DNA of 64,000 nt from Minisyncoccota bacterium (GTDB taxonomy: Bacteria > Patescibacteriota > Minisyncoccia > Phycocordibacterales > CALRHW01), in the NCBI GenBank assembly GCA_046350795.1, contig JAXLZT010000001.1:389164-453163 (forward strand), written 5' to 3'. The stretch's first letter is position 1. Each line of letters begins with the position of its first letter. The position numbers and the translations under genes were made by a program. The notes under the pieces are model-generated. The model ran no database searches. It saw only the letters and a list, made by a program, of their open reading frames with translations, and was not told where the DNA came from. Positions 4,194 through 56,513 of the stretch are shown piece after piece.

Positions 4194-4904
4194 TCATCGC
4201 TGTTGTTCGGTCAGGTCACAGATTGCGGTGTACTGAAACACCTTGTTTCCGGACGTCGACGCTGGTCTTGACCGGAAAGCCATTACTGGCCCCGTCAGTT
4301 TCTCTCTTCCGAGATCAATCTGTCGCCCAGGCAGGTGTTTGGCTTTCACCACTCCACCATCGGCTTGCTGGAGCTCTAGGTCGAGCTCCTTGTCTGAAAG
4401 AATGGTTACTTTCTTGACGTTTGATGGCAGGTTTTGCCAATCCGACCACACCCCCGGCTCAGATGTGATCAGCAGGTTTGTCGAGCCAGCAACACTTGTT
4501 GCGATCACTTTCGGCGTTGAAGCCCTTACCACCAGACCGATCACACCAGAAATGGCCACAACAAAAGACGGTACCAAGATGATCAGGATCCACACGATCT
4601 TGAGGATCTTGCCCCAGGACCACTTGCGCGGGTCTGGACGAATCCAGAAGAGGGTGGCGATGAGCAGGATCACTCCACCAATCCATGCCAGGACCGGCCA
4701 CATGGAAGACCAGATGGCATAGAAGTCCGGTGGAGTGACGCTCTTTGAGACGATGCCGACGATGATAAACGTCGCCAGCAGACTGATCATTGTCAAAGCA
4801 TTCTTGGAGAATGCTTGAGTTTTGATCCACTTGGTAGCGACCTTCCTGTTTCGCCAACCAAGAACGACTCGATTGGTCACGTTTTTTCTCAGCCAATTCT
4901 TCAT
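4194..4904 (-). CDS. GC-rich membrane protein (three N-terminal TM helices plus a roughly 110-aa soluble C-terminal domain); possible NfeD-like partner of the adjacent SPFH protein
   Basis: Perfect SD (AAGGAGGTGAA) 2 nt ahead of the ATG at 4904. The composition is GC-rich. The product assignment is inferred only from its adjacency to the SPFH gene. Confidence 0.45.
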   Translation of the reverse strand: MKNWLRKNVTNRVVLGWRNRKVATKWIKTQAFSKNALTMISLLATFIIVGIVSKSVTPPDFYAIWSSMWPVLAWIGGVILLIATLFWIRPDPRKWSWGKILKIVWILIILVPSFVVAISGVIGLVVRASTPKVIATSVAGSTNLLITSEPGVWSDWQNLPSNVKKVTILSDKELDLELQQADGGVVKAKHLPGRQIDLGREKLTGPVMAFRSRPASTSGNKVFQYTAICDLTEQQR

Positions 4905-5115: not shown

Positions 5116-6300
5116 TTACTTGCCGTCGTTGGAAAGAGGCAATGTCACCCCAGGTACTTGACCAAGGACCAGTGTTCCCTTGACTTGGGAGTACTTGTCT
5201 GCCATGTACATGGCAGCTCCAGCACCATTGCCGGCGGTAGCAATCGCACCATAGCCCTCAGCTTGCGCTTTGAGCATGGCTTCTTCACCCTTTGCCTTGG
5301 CGACCAGATTGGCCTCCTCAACATTGGCCTTGGCTTTACCCTCGGCTTCAATGCCGGGAGCAGCAGCCAACTTCATCTCAGCTTCTTGACGTGCCCGCTG
5401 GATTTCCAGCTGGCCTGCGATGTACTCAGGTGGGGCTTCGATGGCCACAAGTTTGATCTCGACGATCTCTTGTCCCACCGTTTCCATGATACCGGGGTAT
5501 TCTTTGTCCCCGATCACCACCTTTTCGTTGACTGCCATGAGCGCTTGGATGAGTTCTGAGTTAGCCTCAATCCTTCCACCAGACGTTGTCAAACCCTTGA
5601 TGATTGTCTCAAAGGTTCGTCCTTCCTTGCCTGCGTACTGAAGCAGACCAGAAAAGATTGCCACCTTGACCCTGTTGATCCAGTCGCCCGGATTTGATGA
5701 GGTGCCAAAGAGTGTCTTGTGGACGTTTCTCGTTCTCAGCTGTACTGAGAGACGAAACTTCAGCTTGTTCTGTTTGCTGTCTTCCACTCCATCGATCTCC
5801 ATTCCGTACTGGTATGTACAAAAATGGAGTTGGATTTCCTCGGGTTCATGTGGGACGATCTTGTCGCCATCCACTTTTTCCCAAGCAAATTTCCACCTCA
5901 ATGGCTTGAAAATCGGATACCATCCGATCCACTCATAACCGTAGAGGCGGTGGATGAAGCTTCTTTCAAAGTCTCCTGGGAGTACTTCTCCACTGCCACT
6001 TGGACAGAGATGCTCACCCTTTTTCCAGTGAAACATCTTGTGCACGGTGCCACCATGCATGACCACCGCGTCGCAGTTTTCCTGCGCTTTGATGAAGAAT
6101 TTGGTGCCTCCATCAACCTTCGGATCGGCGAGCCGAGCGATGATGACACCGCACACCCACCAAGCCAGAAAGGTCAGACCACCCACCATGGCAATGATGC
6201 CGAGTGTGATGAACGCTGACACCGGTCCAAAGACCAGCCATGACAGGACGAATCCTGCCACGAGGGAGAACCAGAAAGACCAGCTCTTGAGAAAATTCAT
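5116..6300 (-). CDS. SPFH/band-7 (flotillin/YqiK-like) membrane protein, GC-rich
   Basis: Two N-terminal TM helices. The C-terminal region is rich in E/A/K/Q repeats (QLEIQRARQEAEMKLAA...AEGKAKANVEEANLVAKAKGEEAMLKAQAEGY), typical of flotillin-like proteins. SD AAAGGGGTG. Confidence 0.55.
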   Translation of the reverse strand: MNFLKSWSFWFSLVAGFVLSWLVFGPVSAFITLGIIAMVGGLTFLAWWVCGVIIARLADPKVDGGTKFFIKAQENCDAVVMHGGTVHKMFHWKKGEHLCPSGSGEVLPGDFERSFIHRLYGYEWIGWYPIFKPLRWKFAWEKVDGDKIVPHEPEEIQLHFCTYQYGMEIDGVEDSKQNKLKFRLSVQLRTRNVHKTLFGTSSNPGDWINRVKVAIFSGLLQYAGKEGRTFETIIKGLTTSGGRIEANSELIQALMAVNEKVVIGDKEYPGIMETVGQEIVEIKLVAIEAPPEYIAGQLEIQRARQEAEMKLAAAPGIEAEGKAKANVEEANLVAKAKGEEAMLKAQAEGYGAIATAGNGAGAAMYMADKYSQVKGTLVLGQVPGVTLPLSNDGK

Positions 6301-6456: not shown

Positions 6457-6541
6457 TGGTGGGCGAGGGGAGAGTCGAACTCCCATGGATTACTCCACTA
6501 GTTCCTAAGACTAGCGCGGCTACCAATTACGCCACTCGCCC
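6457..6541 (-). tRNA. tRNA-Leu (anticodon TAG)
   Basis: Hand-folded cloverleaf. Acceptor GGGCGAG/CTCGCCC, anticodon loop CTTAGGA, long variable arm, T-arm GGGAG-TTCGACT-CTCCC. Confidence 0.8.
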
Positions 6542-6593
6542 AAATTTTTAAAAAATACCTATTGTCGGTCACTGCTTTCTTCGCACAACCGAG

Positions 6594-6666
6594 TCCGCCC
6601 ACCAGGATTCGAACCTGGGACCCACCGCTTAAGAGGCGGTTGCTCTACCAACTGAGCTATGGACGG
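6594..6666 (-). tRNA. tRNA-Lys (anticodon CTT)
   Basis: 73-nt cloverleaf. Acceptor CCGTCCA/TGGGCGG, D-arm GCTC-AGTTGGTA-GAGC, anticodon loop CTCTTAA, T-arm CCAGG-TTCGAAT-CCTGG. Confidence 0.8.
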
Positions 6667-6763
6667 TTATTAAACCTTGGTTTCAAACTACCAAAACAGC
6701 TATGGACGGTTATTAAACCTTGGTTTCAAACTACCAAAACAGCTATGGACGGTTATTAAAAGT
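6658..6763. repeat. 2.4 tandem copies of a 43-bp unit that begins inside the 5' end of tRNA-Lys
   Basis: The unit gctatggacggttattaaaccttggtttcaaactaccaaaaca repeats with exact 43-bp period (tatggacggt at 6658, 6701 and 6744). Confidence 0.85.
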
Positions 6764-6785
6764 ACATTTTATTTAATACCGTATC

Positions 6786-6834
6786 CTACATAAAAGAATA
6801 GAGCCGGGCAAGAACAAGTCGTGCCACAGGCTCT
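6786..6834 (-). terminator. GC-clamp hairpin with ATTCTTTTATG tail
   Basis: AGAGCCGGGCA...TGCCACAGGCTCT stem, downstream of the 83-aa membrane-protein gene. Confidence 0.4.
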
Positions 6835-6865
6835 GGGGTGGGGAGATGGCGACTGTGATGGTGGC

Positions 6866-7117
6866 TCATCCGTGAGCGGTCTGACGCATCAGAAACGCGT
6901 GGTGCTTCTTGGCCAGTATCTCTGACACAACCAGAATGTTCACCGCTGCAATCGTGACGGTCACCAACATGCAAAGCATCGCTGGGAAGATCGGCCAGTA
7001 GAGGAAGTCCTTGGTGGTCTGGTGCTGGTACATGAAGTACACAGCCATGACCGCAACCACCAGGCCGATCAAGTCCGTCAGTATGAGCCACCTGATCTGG
7101 CGGCGCAACTTTTTCAT
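6866..7117 (-). CDS. small GC-rich two-TM membrane protein (83 aa)
   Basis: Two hydrophobic helices. SD AAAGGAA precedes the ATG at 7117. Preferred over the overlapping 128-aa ORF 6786..7172. Confidence 0.45.
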   Translation of the reverse strand: MKKLRRQIRWLILTDLIGLVVAVMAVYFMYQHQTTKDFLYWPIFPAMLCMLVTVTIAAVNILVVSEILAKKHHAFLMRQTAHG

Positions 7118-7261
7118 GCCATTGTTCCTTTTCAGCTAGTGTTTGTCGCATCTCCACGACCGGAACTGTCATTTTTTACGATTATGACAGCACCCACATT
7201 ATCTAGTTTTTTTTGATAAAAGTCAATAAAAGTAATACACATATATCGGATTCTTGTATTG

Positions 7262-7309
7262 GTTGAAAAATAAAATCCGCCGGACACCACGAACGTGGGC
7301 CGGCGGATT
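7262..7309 (-). terminator. hairpin AATCCGCCGG...CCGGCGGATT with T-rich tail on minus strand
   Basis: 10-bp GC-rich stem followed on the minus strand by TTTATTTTTC. Confidence 0.4.
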
Positions 7310-7342
7310 GGCGGAGGTGCGAGTTGGTTTGCAGGGATCGGG

Positions 7343-7678
7343 TCAAACACAAATGACCAAAGTCCTGTTGACGTGAAGTCTGATGTCTGTGATGAGCTCG
7401 TGGTCATCACTGCCGACGAGCGCTTGGATGATCTGCGACAGCTTGTTGAGGATCAGCCCTCGAATCGAGCTTGGCACCTCGGAGATTGCCAAGGTGATCA
7501 TCAAAGCCACCCCCTCCGGAGAGAATTCGTCCCCAGCCTTCTTGAGGAGAAGGTGATTGAATCCTTTCAGGTTTAGGTTGTCGATCGAAAACAGCCGATC
7601 ACACAGCTGGTTGTGTGGTGGGAGGACGATCACCTTCGTCTCACGGCCACACCGATCATTGTTCTCACTTGTCCGCAT
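7343..7678 (-). CDS. GC-rich hypothetical protein (111 aa)
   Basis: ORF with SD-like GAGAGG and its own terminator. A palindromic operator-like site lies upstream. No recognisable domain. Confidence 0.4.
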   Translation of the reverse strand: MRTSENNDRCGRETKVIVLPPHNQLCDRLFSIDNLNLKGFNHLLLKKAGDEFSPEGVALMITLAISEVPSSIRGLILNKLSQIIQALVGSDDHELITDIRLHVNRTLVICV

Positions 7679-7712
7679 CTGCTAGCCTCTCAATGTGCAA
7701 ATTTACCACGAT

Positions 7713-7733
7713 CCTTGTGGTAAAGGGTCGACG
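7713..7733. promoter_or_regulatory. perfect palindrome TTACCAC-GATCCTT-GTGGTAA upstream of the 111-aa gene
   Basis: 7-bp inverted arms located 35-55 nt upstream of the start codon at 7678. Confidence 0.3.
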
Positions 7734-7932
7734 CTCACCTGAGCGCAGACAAGAAAGAAATATATCACGATAAATAGAGTGGGTCAAATAAGAGGGGTGT
7801 GAGTATCTTTTGTTCAAGTTATACTTTGTGTTTTTTTATCCACCACTTTTTTATAGCAGGTAGATATTGTATAGAAATAAAAAATCCTCTTGAGGTTTTT
7901 TAATTTTTTCTTCCATGTTTAAATCCTAAATG

Positions 7933-8016
7933 TGCCCAGGGCGGGAGTCGAACCCACAAGAGCTTTCGCCCACAACATTTTAAGTGTTGCGCGTATACCA
8001 ATTCCGCCACCTAGGC
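7933..8016 (-). tRNA. tRNA-Leu (anticodon TAA)
   Basis: Cloverleaf with acceptor GCCTAGG/CCTGGGC, anticodon loop CTTAAAA, long variable arm, T-arm GTGGG-TTCGACT-CCCGC. Confidence 0.8.
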
Positions 8017-8487
8017 ATTTTTTCTATTTCTTCCACGATGAGTTGTTTTTAGACTATGGCAATTTGGACAAAGAATTCTTAGGTTTTCTAATCTGTTGTC
8101 GTTATGTTTACCATTAATATGATCCAACTCTAGAGGTAATCTACCATCTTCTGACCATTTTGCCCACCCGCATTCTTCACACATAGCTTTCATTAAACCA
8201 TCTCTTAGTAACCTTTTTTTAAGTTTAAAACTCTGATAGGTGCTATTTTTAATAAGGATTTTTTCAATAGGGATTATTGGTTTGCCAATGCCAATCAGTC
8301 CTTTATTCCAGCTTTTTCCTTTAAAATGGTCAATGGGTATTTTGTATAACTCAATGAACTTCTTTATTTGAGAATAATTGCCACCCGCAGGAATAAGCTT
8401 AAGTTTTTTAATGACTTGTCGTGTACTCGTAGAAGAAAGACAGGCCTCTAATAGTTGGGCCTTTGTCCAAGATTTTTTTCTCTCCAT
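8011..8487 (-). CDS. HNH endonuclease
   Basis: C-terminal HNH motif LELDHINGKHNDNRLENLRILCPNCHSLKT. The start was moved to the internal Met (MERKK) because the longer ORF runs through tRNA-Cys. The stop codon overlaps the 5' end of tRNA-Leu(TAA). Confidence 0.6.
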   Translation of the reverse strand: MERKKSWTKAQLLEACLSSTSTRQVIKKLKLIPAGGNYSQIKKFIELYKIPIDHFKGKSWNKGLIGIGKPIIPIEKILIKNSTYQSFKLKKRLLRDGLMKAMCEECGWAKWSEDGRLPLELDHINGKHNDNRLENLRILCPNCHSLKTTHRGRNRKNA

Positions 8488-8547
8488 ATAAAAAAGTATA
8501 CCTACCTGAGATAATGGAAATCTAAAGAAGTTATAGAGAAACACTAG

Positions 8548-8621
8548 AGGCGTAGGTCGGGGTTGAACCGACGTATAGCAGTTTTGCAGACTGCCGCGTT
8601 TACCAACTTCGCCACTACGCC
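8548..8621 (-). tRNA. tRNA-Cys (anticodon GCA)
   Basis: 74-nt cloverleaf. Acceptor GGCGTAG/CTACGCC, anticodon loop CTGCAAA, T-arm GTCGG-TTCAACC-CCGAC. Confidence 0.8.
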
Positions 8622-18904: not shown

Positions 18905-18933
18905 TTGACTTTTTGTATATAGTATGCTATTAT
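18905..18933 (+). promoter_or_regulatory. sigma70-like promoter TTGACT-17-TATTAT
   Basis: Near-consensus -35/-10 with a 17-bp spacer, upstream of the GC-rich membrane-protein gene. SD AAAGGGGGG at 18986-18993. Confidence 0.45.
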
Positions 18934-18997
18934 TATATGGTAAACACAGTCACGGAAAGCTCATTCCCAACTTCAACTCAACAGAAAGGGGGGTCAC

Positions 18998-19645
18998 ATG
19001 ACTCTTCAACAAATCTTTGCCATGTCCTCGGCGGTTCTCATGGTCATTGGTTCGGTGTGGCAGGTGTATGTGGCGATTCGTTATCCAAAGAAGGTCAGAC
19101 CAACTCTCGCGAGCTGGATCATCTTCTCCACCACTTTGACGTTGTCGTTTGTCACGTACTGGACCACCAAGGAACGAAACCTGGTGTCCAACGCAGCAAA
19201 CGCATCGGCAATGGTGGGTGCGCTCATTGTGTTTCTCGGAGCGCTGGCGATGCACATTCGAAGTGGTAACAAGTTGGCGTTCTCGCGCTTCCAGAAGGGA
19301 AGTCTGACATGCGCCAGCTTGATCGCTCTCGTGTGGGTCGTGATGGTTTGGGGTTTGGGATATAGCGGCCTTGTGCCAAACATCCTTACCCAAGTACTCA
19401 TGATCATTGGTTATTGCGTCACGGCCGACAAGGTGTGGCGTGCGACGAGCACTTCGGAGTCCTTCTTCTTGTGGTGGTGCATTTTCGCCTCTAGTATGCT
19501 GGGACTTGTCCCAGCGTGCGCGAGACTCGACGCTCTTGCGATCTTGTATGCCACCAGAGCCACTGTCTGTACCGGTCTTCTCCTGATCCTTCTGTATCGG
19601 ATCAAGAGTCGGTCGTCGCAGGCAAGTCTGGTCACCGTGGTTTGA
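18998..19645 (+). CDS. GC-rich 6-TM membrane protein (215 aa), paralog of 45634..46194
   Basis: Hydrophobic multi-TM profile. Shares the ASWI...GAL(I/L)V...SES(F/W)(F/W)LW motifs with the island protein at 45.6 kb. The antisense ORF 18950..19654 was rejected. Confidence 0.5.
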   Translation: MTLQQIFAMSSAVLMVIGSVWQVYVAIRYPKKVRPTLASWIIFSTTLTLSFVTYWTTKERNLVSNAANASAMVGALIVFLGALAMHIRSGNKLAFSRFQKGSLTCASLIALVWVVMVWGLGYSGLVPNILTQVLMIIGYCVTADKVWRATSTSESFFLWWCIFASSMLGLVPACARLDALAILYATRATVCTGLLLILLYRIKSRSSQASLVTVV

Positions 19646-19704
19646 GGGCTCCACTCATGAGTTGGATGTAAGGTAGCGAGGTGGGTACCATAACTCCACC
19701 CAAA

Positions 19705-19746
19705 AGCTGCGCAAAGACGAAAGTCAGTGCGCAGTTTTCTTTTTTA
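19705..19746 (+). terminator. hairpin CTGCGCA...TGCGCAG followed by TTTTCTTTTTT
   Basis: 7-bp GC stem with a 14-nt loop. The tail overlaps the dnaE stop codon. Confidence 0.5.
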
Positions 19747-23649: not shown

Positions 23650-24375
23650 TCACTTGGCGATAGCCAGGGTCAGATCTGGGTGCGGCTCATAGCCCAAAGG
23701 CGTTGGAGCATCATCACGTAGTCCGCAGACCACGGATATGAGCTGTACGGCATTGTCCCGGCCCACCTTGACTGTGCTACTTGGTGCCGGCGTGTACCCC
23801 TCCCCGAGCTCAAAGCCGACCGCTTTGATGAGCTCGATGTACGGCACCCCAAGCGTGTCATCTTCAGCACCACAGTTGGGCGAGAAGTCTTCGATCAACT
23901 GTGGAAACACCAGAGTGTCTAGGATTTGCTCCATTTTGGCAAAGAACGCAAGGCTGAGCAGGCCAATCCTCGATCCACAGCAACTTGGCTTGTGCGAGAA
24001 CATGTCATCGACTCGTCGACTGTATCCATCGATGAGTGCTGCATAGTGGCGATCGAAGATGCCGTTGCCACCAGATATATTCCAATAGCCAAGGAGATGA
24101 TCAATGCTTTTTGTGTGTCCTGTTCGGTCAATGTACCGTTGCATGATCTCACGCGCTTCTGGATGGCGTAGGTGCTTTGCCGTCTTATCCATCCAGACCT
24201 GATGCTTGCCTCTCATGAACAGGGCTCGGTGGATACCGGCCACCCTTTTGAGACCCAGAACCTTCTCTTCTCCGTAGCAACGAAGTGCAGACTCGATCGC
24301 CCGGCTGAACTTGGGGCTCATTTCTCCCAGTAGTGCTCGTGCCTCCACTTGCCCAGCTTCTTCTTGCGTCATCAT
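23650..24375 (-). CDS. GC-rich soluble hypothetical protein (241 aa)
   Basis: Long ORF with SD GAAAGG. No recognisable motif. Confidence 0.5.
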   Translation of the reverse strand: MMTQEEAGQVEARALLGEMSPKFSRAIESALRCYGEEKVLGLKRVAGIHRALFMRGKHQVWMDKTAKHLRHPEAREIMQRYIDRTGHTKSIDHLLGYWNISGGNGIFDRHYAALIDGYSRRVDDMFSHKPSCCGSRIGLLSLAFFAKMEQILDTLVFPQLIEDFSPNCGAEDDTLGVPYIELIKAVGFELGEGYTPAPSSTVKVGRDNAVQLISVVCGLRDDAPTPLGYEPHPDLTLAIAK

Positions 24376-29469: not shown

Positions 29470-30237
29470 ATGAAAGCATGGACTCAAGTCCCCGCTGGCG
29501 ACATCAATGCCGCCAATCAACGTCTGTGGGGAGCGATCGGCGACAACGCCGAAGAGGTCGCAGCCCGCATCAACACCGACCCTGCGTTCGTGGCGAACAT
29601 CGCACGACTCATGGTCAATGGCGGTTACGAGCCGTCAACGTCACAGAAGCTCGCCCGCGAGATCATGGGCAAGAACTTCTTCGGTATCGAGGAGGCGATC
29701 AAACACTTCGGGGTTAATCCCACGAAGCAACAGCTCGCTTGCTTGGCTGAAGTTCCGTGGAGCGAGGAAGTGCTGAAGTCATGCAAGGACACGCACGTTC
29801 TCGTCGCCGTCTTTCCGCTGTCGATCCTCGACATCCGTGGACACGCCCGAAAGCAGTCCGACCGGACCCTGTTTTACTCACAGGACTGGTATGACAAGCA
29901 GGCCTTCGCCAAGGACAAGGGCGAAGTCGGCTGGCAGTTGGTCCGCAAGGAACCGATCGCCAACTCGACCTCGAAGATGTGGAACGATCAACAGGCACTC
30001 CTCTCGAAAGACGAGGAAACTCCGACTGCTCGGATCGTGGTTTACACCATGGTCGGCCACCTCCTCGCTACTGGAGAGCGTCTGTTCGAGAAGATCTACG
30101 TTCGTTGCGTCGATCTCGACTCGGACGGTGACCGCGTCAGCGTCCGCGGCTTCGATGCCGGGGGTCTCGTCGTCTACGGCTGGTGCGGCGGCGACCGCGA
30201 TTTCAGCATCGGCTTGTCGGCTGCCAGGAAGCAGTGA
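29470..30237 (+). CDS. very GC-rich hypothetical protein (255 aa)
   Basis: Long ORF in a stretch of about 60% GC. The alternative-frame ORFs are GC-content artefacts. No recognisable motif. Confidence 0.5.
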   Translation: MKAWTQVPAGDINAANQRLWGAIGDNAEEVAARINTDPAFVANIARLMVNGGYEPSTSQKLAREIMGKNFFGIEEAIKHFGVNPTKQQLACLAEVPWSEEVLKSCKDTHVLVAVFPLSILDIRGHARKQSDRTLFYSQDWYDKQAFAKDKGEVGWQLVRKEPIANSTSKMWNDQQALLSKDEETPTARIVVYTMVGHLLATGERLFEKIYVRCVDLDSDGDRVSVRGFDAGGLVVYGWCGGDRDFSIGLSAARKQ

Positions 30238-45540: not shown

Positions 45541-45601
45541 TTTTCAAAAGAAAACGCCGCACCGAGAGTGTGCCCGACGGGCGTCCTCTCTAGTGCGGCG
45601 T
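45541..45601 (-). terminator. hairpin ACGCCGCAC...GTGCGGCGT followed (minus strand) by TTTTCTTTTG
   Basis: 9-bp GC stem with a 30-nt loop. Confidence 0.45.
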
Positions 45602-45633
45602 GTATGCCGACATGGTTTTTGTGCCAGCTTCCC

Positions 45634-46194
45634 TTATCTGAGAACCAGCACTGTCATCGTGGTGTTCAGGACGAAGCATCCGCATGGGATGAGACGCTCC
45701 TCGATTGTCCACTTCTTTGCTCCATAGCAGGAAAGGACGCAAGAGAAAGCGACACCAGCCCATAGCCACCAACTCTCTGAGTTCGGTTTCAGCCACGCAT
45801 CATACATGGCTGGAAACGCAGCGATCGTCATGGCGGTCATGCAAGCGACGATTGCCAACTTGGGGCCAGATCTCCACCAGCAGATCACCGCGACTGCCAT
45901 CCCGATGGCAGAGATCATTTCCACCAGACCCCAATGCCACGTTCCTTTCCCGAGAAGGATGATCGTGACGAGGAGAGCTCCGAGTGTGAACCCAGCAGGA
46001 AGCCAGGGTCGCTTGTTGCCGGCTGCAACGCAGCCAACAAGGATCAGGGCATCAAGCACTGTCCACATGATCCAGCTCGCTGTATTCTGGGGTAAGTCGT
46101 GTACCATCAGATAGACAGCGAAGGCGACGATCACGATCGTCGAGATCAATCCTCCAATCAGACCGATTCTCTTTTTCAAGAGTTCGTTTTGCAT
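45634..46194 (-). CDS. GC-rich 6-TM membrane protein (186 aa), paralog of 18998..19645
   Basis: Shares the ASWI, GAL(L/I)V and SESWWLW motifs with the 215-aa island protein. SD GAAAGG. Inverted repeat GGCCGCAT...ATGCGGCC upstream at 46244-46286. Confidence 0.5.
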   Translation of the reverse strand: MQNELLKKRIGLIGGLISTIVIVAFAVYLMVHDLPQNTASWIMWTVLDALILVGCVAAGNKRPWLPAGFTLGALLVTIILLGKGTWHWGLVEMISAIGMAVAVICWWRSGPKLAIVACMTAMTIAAFPAMYDAWLKPNSESWWLWAGVAFSCVLSCYGAKKWTIEERLIPCGCFVLNTTMTVLVLR

Positions 46195-46550
46195 CGTTAG
46201 CCTTTCGGTTTGTTGTGATTCTTAGACTGCTGCCCACGATATTGGCCGCATTTTTCAAGACCCGGAAGATCCTAAAAGATGCGGCCAACGAAAACCATAT
46301 CAAGGAACTATTACGCGAAATAATAGCATACAAAAATAAAAAAGTCAATAAAAAAGAAGGCCACCCCCAAAAGGGTGGCGCTGAGGGTTGTTATTGACTT
46401 GTCGAATGGTGTTTCGCCCGGCGAGTCAATGCTGAGAGACATGCTGTACGCGAACTCGCTCTGTCAGAGAGGTTGGTGAAGTTGACTTTTTTCTACAATG
46501 TCTTAGTCTGTTTGAGGACATCACCACATACAAAAGAAAGGAGGTGATAA

Positions 46551-47468
46551 ATGATCCGTAAAAATGGAAGAGGTGGTGGCACTCAGAGCGATACGTCCGA
46601 ACTGCTTCGATTTTTTTCGGGCAAGATTGAGCAATACCCCATTCTTACAAGAGAGGAGGAGGTGGAGCTTTTCAAGCGTATCGAAGCTGGTGACGTACAG
46701 GCAAGAGAAGACCTGGTGTATTCAAACGTACGCATCGTCATTAAGACGGCCTTCGTGTACTGGAATATATCTAGAAAACGTTATGGGCCAATCCATTTCG
46801 CTCTAGATGATCTGGTCCAGGTGGGGTTCACCGGTCTCTATAGGGCCGTTGAGAAGTTTGACTGGCGACGCGGGAACAAGTTTTCCACATACGTCAGTTG
46901 GTGGATTCGTCAGGCGATTTCGAGGCTGATATGCAATACGGGTAACACAATCAGGTTGCCTGTGAATTTGCAGGCACGTATCTCGAAATATCGGAAGACT
47001 GTCATCCGCCTTACCAAGGAACTAGGCCGTACTCCTCATCTAGTAGAGATAGCTGGGAGGATGAAGCTGAGGGTGGATTGTGTCGAAGAACTGATAGCGA
47101 TTACTCAGATTCAACCCATGTCACTCGACGAGCCGTCTTCACCAGAATCTCCAGACAGCACGCTTTTATCTGTTATACCGACCAAGGGTGTTCAGCCATG
47201 GAGAGATGTTCATAGGCAGAATATTCTGGCGTTTAAACAGGAGAAGATCGAGAGGGTGTTGAAATCTCTCACTTCTCAAGAACGTGATGTCATCACATTG
47301 CGCTTTGGTCTTGATGGGCAGGGTGAGCGCACTCTTGGGGAGGTTGGTAAGTTGTACGGTGTTACTCGAGAGCGGATTAGACAGATAGAGGGCAAGGCAC
47401 TTCTCAAACTTCGCGAACGCCACGAAGAAGATCTCGCCGAACTTCTTTTCGAAATGGGCGACAAATGA
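46551..47468 (+). CDS. second sigma70-family sigma factor (group 2-like, no region 1.1), moderately GC-rich
   Basis: Regions 1.2/2 (QYPILTREEEVELFKRIEAGD, FSTYVSWWIRQAISRLI), 3 and 4 ([19 protein letters not shown]). Perfect SD AAAGGAGGTGA. Upstream inverted repeat ATTGACT-N24-AGTCAAT at 46393-46430. Confidence 0.7.
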   Translation: MIRKNGRGGGTQSDTSELLRFFSGKIEQYPILTREEEVELFKRIEAGDVQAREDLVYSNVRIVIKTAFVYWNISRKRYGPIHFALDDLVQVGFTGLYRAVEKFDWRRGNKFSTYVSWWIRQAISRLICNTGNTIRLPVNLQARISKYRKTVIRLTKELGRTPHLVEIAGRMKLRVDCVEELIAITQIQPMSLDEPSSPESPDSTLLSVIPTKGVQPWRDVHRQNILAFKQEKIERVLKSLTSQERDVITLRFGLDGQGERTLGEVGKLYGVTRERIRQIEGKALLKLRERHEEDLAELLFEMGDK

Positions 47469-52255: not shown

Positions 52256-52759
52256 ATGACGAAGACGTCATTAAAGTTTCGTGTCCGAACTCACGGGATT
52301 GTGGTTGATGTTCGACAAGACAGCAAGTGGGTCAATGCAATTTCTGTGATGGCCGTCATGCGTCCCGGCTCTTTTGATGTGAGCCGGGTAGGCGGACTCT
52401 ATCCTCCCGTTGGTAATGGGATGATCAAGAAGAGCCTCACTCTGCTGAATTTCCCAGAAGGTGACGGTGGTTTGGACAGTGCTGTTGTTTGGGCCAAGGA
52501 TAATGGCCTGAAAACAGTCGAACCACGTTCACTTTTTGCCATCAAGACGGCACACCCCGGACTTCACAAGAAGATCGGTCAGGGTGGGGTAGTTCTCGTG
52601 GAGACTGTCGGATGTACGCTGAATCATACTGGCTTCCCTGACAAACGCCATCTGTGTTGCGTTGTCTTGGGGGACGGTGTGCCCGCTGTCGGACTGTTTC
52701 CGGTCAACCAATTCAACGGCTTTGGTAGCCACGACACCTGGTTTGTGTTTAGTGACTAG
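52256..52759 (+). CDS. GC-rich hypothetical protein (167 aa)
   Basis: ORF flanked by its own consensus promoter and terminator. No recognisable motif. Confidence 0.5.
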   Translation: MTKTSLKFRVRTHGIVVDVRQDSKWVNAISVMAVMRPGSFDVSRVGGLYPPVGNGMIKKSLTLLNFPEGDGGLDSAVVWAKDNGLKTVEPRSLFAIKTAHPGLHKKIGQGGVVLVETVGCTLNHTGFPDKRHLCCVVLGDGVPAVGLFPVNQFNGFGSHDTWFVFSD

Positions 52760-55967: not shown

Positions 55968-56018
55968 GTTGGAGACGTTCTTAATGTTCGACCAATGTCC
56001 ATCAACTCAGGAGGTGTC

Positions 56019-56513
56019 ATGTCCACGACGACAGAACCAACTATCGCCTGTCTGGAGGACAGGAAGAGTCTCATCGAGGCGGCCGTGAAGAGACTCATCG
56101 AAGACTGCGAAGGTCAGCTGCTGGTGAAGAAGGGAGAACGGGCGAATATCACCATCACGCTCGGGGTCGGACTATCCGATGAACGACCCCACCATTCGTT
56201 CAAGGTGGATCTCAAGGTGCAAAGCAAGTCTGACAGGATGCGCACCCTGGGTCCTGTCACGACTGTAGAGGAGTGGTCGCGACTGAGCAATCTCAGCTTC
56301 CGGTCTCCAGCCATCGCCGAGTTCATCCAAGCTCTCAAGCCAGTTGCTGGCAAGTCAAGATCTGCTCGCGCCGGAGATTTCTTCCGGTATGGCAACGAGA
56401 TTCACAGCATCAATCAGAAGCTTCGTGACAGCGACATTCGAATGAGGGTGAGAGGAACATATGGGGGCATGTTCCAAGATCGCCACTTCACTCTCGTGAG
56501 AGTGGGGCATTGA
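56019..56513 (+). CDS. GC-rich hypothetical protein (164 aa), candidate toxin-like partner of the upstream ncRNA
   Basis: SD AGGAGGTG sits 5 nt before the ATG at 56019 (the alternative upstream ATG at 55995 lacks an SD). No recognisable motif. Confidence 0.5.
   Translation: MSTTTEPTIACLEDRKSLIEAAVKRLIEDCEGQLLVKKGERANITITLGVGLSDERPHHSFKVDLKVQSKSDRMRTLGPVTTVEEWSRLSNLSFRSPAIAEFIQALKPVAGKSRSARAGDFFRYGNEIHSINQKLRDSDIRMRVRGTYGGMFQDRHFTLVRVGH

Follow-up and report, generated by a model that had tools for sequence, protein, structure and literature searches.

Two anciently diverged membrane protein families of predicted SWEET fold and opposite predicted orientation, encoded by GC3-rich genes of a Patescibacteria genome

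Introduction

In a 64,000-nucleotide stretch of a Minisyncoccota bacterium genome (assembly GCA_046350795.1, contig JAXLZT010000001.1, positions 389,164 to 453,163; hereafter the window), two short membrane protein genes lie 26 kb apart in GC-rich islands. An earlier note on this DNA took them for paralogs and held that their kinship ties the islands to one gene family. The locus raises the question of whether the two genes are related at all, how each came to its present position, and what their proteins may do. With most biosynthetic pathways missing, Patescibacteria (CPR) depend on imported metabolites, and few of their transporters are recognisable.

Two conserved genes between housekeeping genes

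The two genes, referred to here as A and B, are as follows.

18998 to 19645, plus strand: gene A (U0522_02280, annotated as "hypothetical protein"), 215 aa, seven-TM membrane protein of modelled SWEET/PQ-loop fold, predicted N-out/C-in
45634 to 46194, minus strand: gene B (U0522_02380, annotated as "hypothetical protein"), 186 aa, seven-TM membrane protein of modelled SWEET/PQ-loop fold, predicted N-in/C-out

Both reading frames reported earlier exist, B lying on the minus strand, and further copies occur in related genomes. A word-indexed search retrieved 12 homologs of A (42-49% identity) and 31 of B (42-80% identity), while an exhaustive profile search extended family A to 370 cluster representatives at E <= 1e-3, with 276 at E <= 1e-10 (at least 370 clusters, defined at 50% identity). 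Every A or B homolog that carries an organism name comes from Patescibacteria. Judged by this conservation, A and B are genuine genes. An antisense ORF of 234 aa (18950-19654, minus strand) spans all of gene A and is most likely a by-product of local GC richness, since homolog conservation supports the plus-strand frame of A. No third copy of the superfamily appeared when a deep family A profile was run against the 322 six-frame ORFs of the window.

Gene A is flanked by thrS and dnaE, with dnaE convergent to it, and gene B has rpoD and a second sigma-70 gene as its neighbors and is located upstream of uvrD. This second sigma-70 gene (46551-47468, plus strand) is complete, with regions 1.2, 2, 3 and 4, and encodes an arginine-rich protein of 305 aa at a GC3 of 0.51.

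Both proteins are modelled with a SWEET/PQ-loop fold

Pfam and NCBIfam scans gave no family match for A or B, and hence none to the unrelated families that would have spoken against the proposed kinship; a Pfam scan of 142 family A members gave scattered weak matches only. PDB sequence searches with three profiles returned spurious low-complexity matches (PPR, Myomaker) and no relative. None of these Pfam, NCBIfam or PDB sequence searches supplied a match supporting transporter function.

AlphaFold2 modelled A with a pLDDT of 94.7 and a pTM of 0.89, and B, for which its own alignment of 27 sequences was the sole input, with a pLDDT of 92.8 and a pTM of 0.86. Each model has seven TM helices, rather than the six counted earlier, with TM4 as a linker between two bundles of three helices each. 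The structural matches, with their scores, are listed below, and Foldseek concurs.

Arabidopsis cystinosin: 14.3 for A, 12.7 for B
KDEL receptor: 13.5 for A, 10.1 for B
SWEET2b: 12.0 for A, 11.8 for B
SWEET13: 12.0 for A, 11.2 for B
Human cystinosin: 11.4 for A, 10.3 for B

The seven helices in a 3+1+3 arrangement and the parallel internal duplication that mark the SWEET/PQ-loop superfamily (CL0141, MtN3-like) were both found. The three-TM repeat, in which TM1-3 resemble TM5-7 in parallel, is detectable at the level of sequence in A (P 2.4e-4) and in B (P 7e-4), with reversed controls at P 0.05-0.2, and the loop motif P-x-L-A-S/T-W of repeat 1 aligns with N-T-E-S-x-x-x-W of repeat 2. A 1-3-2 packing of helices in each bundle sets this fold apart from PnuC, to which the earlier note had loosely compared the proteins along with PQ-loop transporters. 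In whole-model comparison, our models match SWEET, cystinosin and KDEL receptor structures strongly and the PnuC structure 4qtn at noise level (Foldseek rank 33, E 1.2, TM 0.27). The PQ-loop-like part of that comparison was upheld, whereas membership of the PnuC family was refuted by the structural comparison.

On the evidence of the models, we place A and B with high confidence in the SWEET/PQ-loop (MtN3-like, CL0141) superfamily structurally, though outside its defined sequence families. The PQ-loop profile PF04193 matched neither A nor B at E <= 10 and, at E <= 0.01, none of the 142 members of family A; MtN3_slv (PF03083) matched neither protein and none of these members; and at a threshold as loose as E <= 10, NMN_transporter matched neither A nor B. 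The PQ dipeptide seen earlier in the second copy is not a conserved feature: in the "PQN" of family B the P varies while Q and N37 are largely kept, and family A has P35 but no Q at the PQ position.

A and B are ancient, very distant homologs

The pairwise alignment proposed earlier as a check of the kinship revealed no significant similarity. BLASTP of A against B gave short matches, the best of which (E 0.011) is non-collinear, matching the first motif of A to the final motif of B because the loop motifs of repeats 1 and 2 resemble each other; no collinear BLASTP match was found. Smith-Waterman and global scores stood at chance level (z = 0.4-0.7 against shuffles), and hhalign of shallow family profiles yielded a collinear alignment of 142 columns that was not significant (P = 0.07).

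Significant homology emerged only with a deep family A alignment of 142 full-length sequences from the exhaustive profile search, and the pairwise tests and shallow profiles alone would have led to a wrong rejection. Aligned by hhalign to the B profile, the deep A profile gave a probability of 95.2% (P 2.5e-8) over 154 collinear columns at about 15% identity, spanning residues 3-173 of A and 6-159 of B, against probabilities of 1-2% (P 0.02-0.06) for reversed-sequence controls. Of the 322 ORFs of the window, several other polytopic membrane proteins among them, B was the sole other match to this profile (E 7.6e-5; next 0.022). Bridging sequences score against both families, P0117 with 103 bits to the A profile and 36.5 bits to B, and P0097 with 111 and 30.6 bits. 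The three shared collinear motifs described earlier are present and in register in the profile-profile alignment, where TLASWII (A 36-42) pairs with TASWIM (B 38-43), the GAL(I/L)V stretches of TM3 coincide, and DKVWRATSTSESFFLWW (A 144-160) pairs with DAWLKPNSESWWLWA (B 132-146).

Hydrophobic, tryptophan-rich helices could in principle resemble each other through convergence or as an artefact of composition rather than by common descent. The chance-level pairwise alignments, the P of 0.07 between shallow profiles and the high bias terms reported by HMMER (11-20 bits) would fit such an origin. We nevertheless regard it as very improbable, for the reversed controls reach 1-2% against 95% in the real comparison, and the other membrane proteins of the window give no match; intermediate sequences, moreover, match both profiles, and models of A and B built from independent alignments share fold, helix order and top structural neighbors. 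On the profile evidence, the homology of A and B is real, ancient and very distant, and the two belong to one superfamily. The earlier claim of a single gene family holds in that broad sense and not in the sense of recent paralogs: since the identity between A and B is only about 15%, and since much nearer relatives of each exist in other genomes, they are, as far as the alignments tell, anciently diverged subfamilies rather than a duplicated or co-transferred pair.

Opposite predicted orientation in the membrane

The earlier note also assigned the two proteins the same topology, which is true of their helix order but not of their predicted orientation, the K+R bias being opposite. We counted K+R in loops delimited by the AlphaFold2 helix boundaries in 142 family A and 27 family B sequences. 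In family A, the N-terminal side has a mean of 3.0 and the opposite side one of 9.2, a bias that 116/142 sequences share in direction; in family B, the corresponding means are 7.8 and 2.4, and 27/27 sequences are biased that way. By the positive-inside rule, which is the only basis of the assignment, family A is predicted to be N-out/C-in, as are SWEETs and cystinosin, and family B N-in/C-out. Because the A-B profile alignment preserves the order of helices, the difference reflects a redistribution of charge and not a shift of register. The loops that carry the motifs (1-2 and 5-6) are predicted to be cytoplasmic in A, like PQ loops, and to face outward in B, so that the periplasm-facing placement suggested earlier suits B and fails for A, whose motif loops fall on the K/R-rich, predicted cytoplasmic side.

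The deep A alignment itself contains 25 "flipped" sequences. These score higher against the B HMM than the rest (mean 13.4 versus 5.3 bits, Spearman p 0.002), and all of the best A-B bridging sequences fall among them. On TM-only columns, the nearest neighbor of a flipped sequence is itself flipped in 13/25 cases, versus 4.3 expected (permutation p 6e-4). The flipped members behave, in these comparisons, like a real subgroup of the A superfamily. The literature that we searched contains no earlier report of an inversion of orientation in the SWEET/PQ-loop superfamily, which is no proof of novelty.

A GC3 excess shared with other single genes

The separate GC-rich stretches noted earlier are borne out by GC3, which is 0.67 in A and 0.65 in B compared to 0.21-0.39 in housekeeping genes, the excess lying at synonymous sites. 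It is not a general property of membrane proteins, because other polytopic proteins of the window have a normal GC3 (0.24-0.33), and we rejected the explanation that membrane proteins are simply GC-rich. About eight further single genes in the window are GC3-rich (0.51-0.76). Seven of the GC3-rich islets are orphans, with GC3 of 0.55-0.76.

4194 to 4904, minus strand: orphan islet
5116 to 6300, minus strand: orphan islet
7343 to 7678, minus strand: orphan islet
23650 to 24375, minus strand: orphan islet
29470 to 30237, plus strand: orphan islet
52256 to 52759, plus strand: orphan islet
55995 to 56513, plus strand: orphan islet
6457 to 8621, minus strand: four tRNA genes (Leu-TAG, Lys-CTT, Leu-TAA, Cys-GCA) scattered among GC3-rich orphan ORFs

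None of the seven islets has a Pfam, PHROG or PADLOC match, except for a weak DUF4149 match of 4194-4904, and none belongs to the A/B superfamily when tested with the deep A profile. The largest GC-rich region of the window, at about 4.0-8.0 kb, holds the four tRNA genes.

Across 12 species-representative Patescibacteria genomes (loci L013-L024), the GC3 of family A lies clearly above that of large neighboring genes in 10, with an offset of about 0.2-0.3. The excess seems to track the GC3 of the host, leaving the offset roughly constant. Recent transfer does not account fully for such constancy, a pattern that simple recent horizontal acquisition does not predict. Candidate explanations are that the genes are replaced repeatedly out of a GC-richer pool, that gaps prone to recombination undergo biased gene conversion, or that codon selection acts on these genes specifically. 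At L004/L013, the family A gene sits inside a run of small GC3-rich orphan ORFs.

We also looked for DNA that the islands might have in common. Beyond promoter hexamers and one 14-nt run, they share no terminal or inverted repeats, attC-like ends or other DNA. The run, GCGAGCTGGATCAT, is identical at 19109-19122 and 46067-46080 and encodes A-S-W-I in both proteins; it is probably coincidental, arising from the same residues and a GC-rich choice of codons. No recombinase adjoins A or B, and neither family has relatives in IMG/VR. A mobile gene cassette, whether integron, transposon or phage, was rejected on the lack of repeats, recombinase and viral-contig relatives. Phage carriage was rejected in the same way, as the island proteins have no PHROG match apart from generic sigma-factor profiles, and membership in a defence system was set aside because the island proteins have no PADLOC match.

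Self-contained transcription units

Putative signals for transcription surround both genes.

18905 to 18933, plus strand: promoter-like site of A, TTGACT, 17 nt, TG-extended TATTAT, 10/12 consensus matches
46320 to 46348, minus strand: promoter-like site of B, TTGACT, 17 nt, TG-extended TATTAT, same architecture as that of A
19707 to 19745, plus strand: terminator-like hairpin after A, CTGCGCA...TGCGCAG followed by a T-run, loop longer than 8 nt
45546 to 45600, minus strand: terminator-like hairpin after B, CGCCGCAC...GTGCGGCG followed by a T-run
46242 to 46288, minus strand: 5' leader hairpin of B, TTGGCCGCATCTTTT...AAAAATGCGGCCAA, stem of about 14 bp, no T-run after it
46360 to 46379, minus strand: strong terminator-like hairpin just upstream of the B promoter, GCCACCC-TTTT-GGGTGGC followed by a T-run

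With a sigma-70-like promoter site upstream and a hairpin with T-run downstream, A and B each appear to be a self-contained transcription unit. The hairpin after A adjoins the stop codon of the convergent dnaE and may for that reason act bidirectionally. Similar promoter sites also precede housekeeping genes (e.g. 58904-58876), which identifies the motif as the general consensus of the organism rather than a mark of cassettes, and a cassette-specific promoter was rejected accordingly.

The leader hairpin of B is kept in the closest relative (locus L001) with one compensatory change of G:C to A:T, while homologs farther removed lack it; a stabilising or regulatory role in the leader is possible. 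A riboswitch at either gene was rejected, since Rfam gave no match across the whole window at the gathering threshold or at the two loci at E <= 1. No annotated minus-strand gene ends at the hairpin at 46360-46379, which may terminate a small RNA encoded between 46380 and 46550 or else shield B from read-through.

Different histories in variable gaps

Comparison with other genomes suggests that A and B reached their places separately. The transcription unit of B can be delimited as a relocatable block.

45545 to 46349, minus strand: B transcription unit (promoter, leader, CDS, terminator), 76.7% identical in DNA to L001 5848-6649

The limits of this block are those of the DNA conserved in L001, which begins at the B promoter (46349) and ends at 45545. 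In L001, B lies between the genes for HisRS and TruB, and the housekeeping genes on either side share 65-72% DNA identity. As the higher DNA identity of the block is partly a compositional by-product of third positions, we rely on protein identities and on position. The syntenic relative GCA_964390845.1 shares with the window the order dnaG-rpoD-uvrD-dsbA-bacA-rnh-hisS-truB; it lacks B in the rpoD-uvrD gap and has it in the hisS-truB gap, which in the window is only 38 bp long. The B protein is 80% identical to the copy of the relative, more than any of six flanking orthologs (58-76%). In the window, B and the second sigma-70 gene together make up an insertion of about 2.1 kb in the rpoD-uvrD interval, and GCA_964390845.1 lacks this insertion.

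Gene A presents a different pattern. Locus L017 has the same thrS-A-dnaE order, with ThrRS 55%, DnaE 68% and A 42.5% identical. The A protein of the window is an outlier of its family, with 38-45% identity to all other members, which are 44-62% identical among themselves. In short, A occupies a conserved slot with a divergent sequence, B a different slot with a conserved sequence, and their histories differ in this respect.

Could A and B nonetheless be linked paralogs, duplicated from one another or acquired together from one source, and so bind the GC-rich islands into a single family? Membership in one superfamily, a GC3 of about 0.66 in both, a shared promoter architecture and the identical 14-nt stretch would all be accounted for. 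Such a linkage is nevertheless very improbable, and already largely refuted, when the identity of A and B is about 15% and closer relatives exist elsewhere (B at 80%, A at up to 49%), when slot and sequence conservation follow different patterns in the two, when the promoter motif also precedes housekeeping genes, and when the islands share neither terminal repeats nor other DNA and hold no other protein of the A/B family. The same divergence, closer relatives and differing histories speak against the view of the earlier note that the resemblance argues against independent random acquisitions.

Atypical composition and presence/absence polymorphism, the two signs of horizontal acquisition that we considered, were both found, although the GC3 excess of the family may have another cause. 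Individually transferred genes, mostly exchanged within Patescibacteria, have been documented to make up as much as 13% of genome length (PMC12455944). We infer horizontal transfer as a cause of the GC3 excess of A and B, and in our reading of the sequences the two would be members of a flexible gene pool that fills variable gaps between core genes, each with a history of its own. Adjoining genes of family A elsewhere encode a Zeta toxin, a Bro-N protein and a PBECR3 toxin-like nuclease (L017 4719-5453, L018 4767-5597 and L022 4791-5291), from which it appears that such gaps collect flexible or selfish genes.

Putative function as small-solute carriers

By analogy with the characterised transporters of this fold, A and B are most likely facilitators of small solutes. 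Their two parallel three-helix bundles, joined by TM4 as an inversion linker, would rock around a central cavity in an alternating-access cycle and move a small hydrophilic solute such as a sugar, amino acid, nucleoside or vitamin. In family A, the cavity may be lined by the conserved aromatic and polar residues Y22, W40, N65/N68, W113, Q132, Y139, E154, W159 and R187. The predicted orientation would be immaterial to a uniporter; in a carrier coupled to an ion, transport would run the opposite way. Such transport would serve an organism that must scavenge most of its metabolites, and the placement of each gene as an independent unit in a variable gap between housekeeping genes would fit the individually transferred genes of Patescibacteria. 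Across the A/B loci compared, we found no conserved neighbor hinting at a substrate, the neighbors being housekeeping or flexible-genome genes. The recurrence of aminoacyl-tRNA synthetase genes was dismissed as a clue to the substrate, as it reflects shared synteny at L017 and unrelated synthetases elsewhere.

The main rival to a carrier function keeps the fold and changes the task, with A and B acting as receptors or adaptors similar to the KDEL receptor, or as proteins resembling MPDU1 and the lipid-linked sugar translocases. MPDU1 and those translocases handle polyprenyl-phosphate sugars for envelope biogenesis. We consider this alternative unlikely but worth retaining: genes for glycosyltransferases or envelope biosynthesis do not recur beside the A/B genes, the function of the KDEL receptor belongs to eukaryotic vesicle trafficking, and the LAB_N match is a single, marginal one. 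Far less plausible is a PnuC-type import of nicotinamide riboside, vitamins or nucleosides, in which a cytoplasmic kinase traps the substrate. A PnuC-type transporter was among the guesses of the earlier note, and this reading could draw on NUDIX or P-loop kinase-like genes near some loci, namely the NUDIX, APH and AAA_17/18 neighbors at L005 and two neighbors elsewhere with AAA_33. The P-loop neighbor at L017, however, is the Zeta toxin and not a metabolite kinase, and neither the noise-level match to 4qtn nor the NMN_transporter search lends PnuC any support. PnuC is described as a topological isomer of SWEET that differs in helix packing (PMC7162841).

We therefore favor, with somewhat more confidence than doubt, the overall interpretation that A and B are diverged members of the SWEET-fold superfamily, candidate carriers of small solutes that would be inserted in opposite orientations and transferred individually. 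A more speculative extension, which we put forward tentatively and think somewhat less likely than not, is that they represent a SWEET-fold superfamily so far confined to Patescibacteria in which the orientation of the whole protein was inverted, that this genome keeps one member of each orientation, and that a pool of GC3-rich single genes is possibly circulating. If this were true, it would constitute a natural inversion of topology in a parallel-repeat seven-TM fold, a phenomenon known mainly for small antiparallel half-transporters, and, given ion coupling, it would provide an importer and an exporter on one scaffold. A GC3 of about 0.2-0.3 above that of the hosts could then mark a pool of single-gene units that swap in fixed gaps without a dedicated recombinase.

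More generally, assigning a SWEET/PQ-loop fold to two families of "hypothetical proteins" that escape current Pfam models makes them candidates for nutrient uptake or exchange with a host, and they would greatly enlarge the bacterial set of full-length seven-helix SWEET-fold proteins, which had been regarded as rare in bacteria. Opposite orientation would bear on the evolution of membrane topology and on whether SWEET-fold carriers work either way round, and the GC3 excess, combined with residence in variable gaps between core genes, offers a way into single-gene exchange in streamlined genomes.

Comparison with known systems

Among known proteins, the PQ-loop transporters (cystinosin/CTNS, PQLC2 and Ypq1; PF04193, clan CL0141) resemble A and B in modelled fold and differ in several respects. 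PF04193 finds neither protein at a cut-off of E <= 10, neither family conserves the PQ dipeptide, and the luminal N-terminal domain is lacking. Moreover, A and B are bacterial, from Patescibacteria, while the PQ-loop systems come from eukaryotic endomembranes, and for family B an inverted insertion is predicted. From SWEETs and bacterial SemiSWEETs (MtN3_slv, PF03083), they are set apart by the absence of an MtN3_slv match. About 20 bacterial seven-TM SWEET-like proteins have been catalogued, all of them recognised by the MtN3_slv motif (PMC5972207), a recognition that A and B escape. They likewise show no sequence match to the KDEL receptor (ER_lumen_recept), whose role in eukaryotic trafficking is implausible in a bacterium.

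PnuC (NMN_transporter) is, to our knowledge, the only well-known bacterial full-length 3+1+3 transporter. It is like A and B in this full-length layout and in size. Its helix packing within the bundle differs from that of SWEET, its structural match to our models is at noise level, and A and B have no Pfam match to it.

For the predicted inversion, parallels are found among oppositely oriented homolog pairs of small transporters. SMR/EmrE-type pairs, Fluc/CrcB and DUF606 were reportedly described by Rapp et al. in 2006 as oppositely oriented homologs with inverted K/R bias. Built of 4-5 TM helices, each of these proteins is a half-transporter that makes up one unit with an antiparallel partner, and the two are often encoded side by side. 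Like them, A and B are homologs whose inverted K/R bias predicts opposite insertion. Unlike SMR/EmrE-type pairs, A and B are complete two-repeat proteins, encoded 26 kb apart and with different phyletic patterns, and the inversion that we propose would concern whole transporters rather than partners within one.
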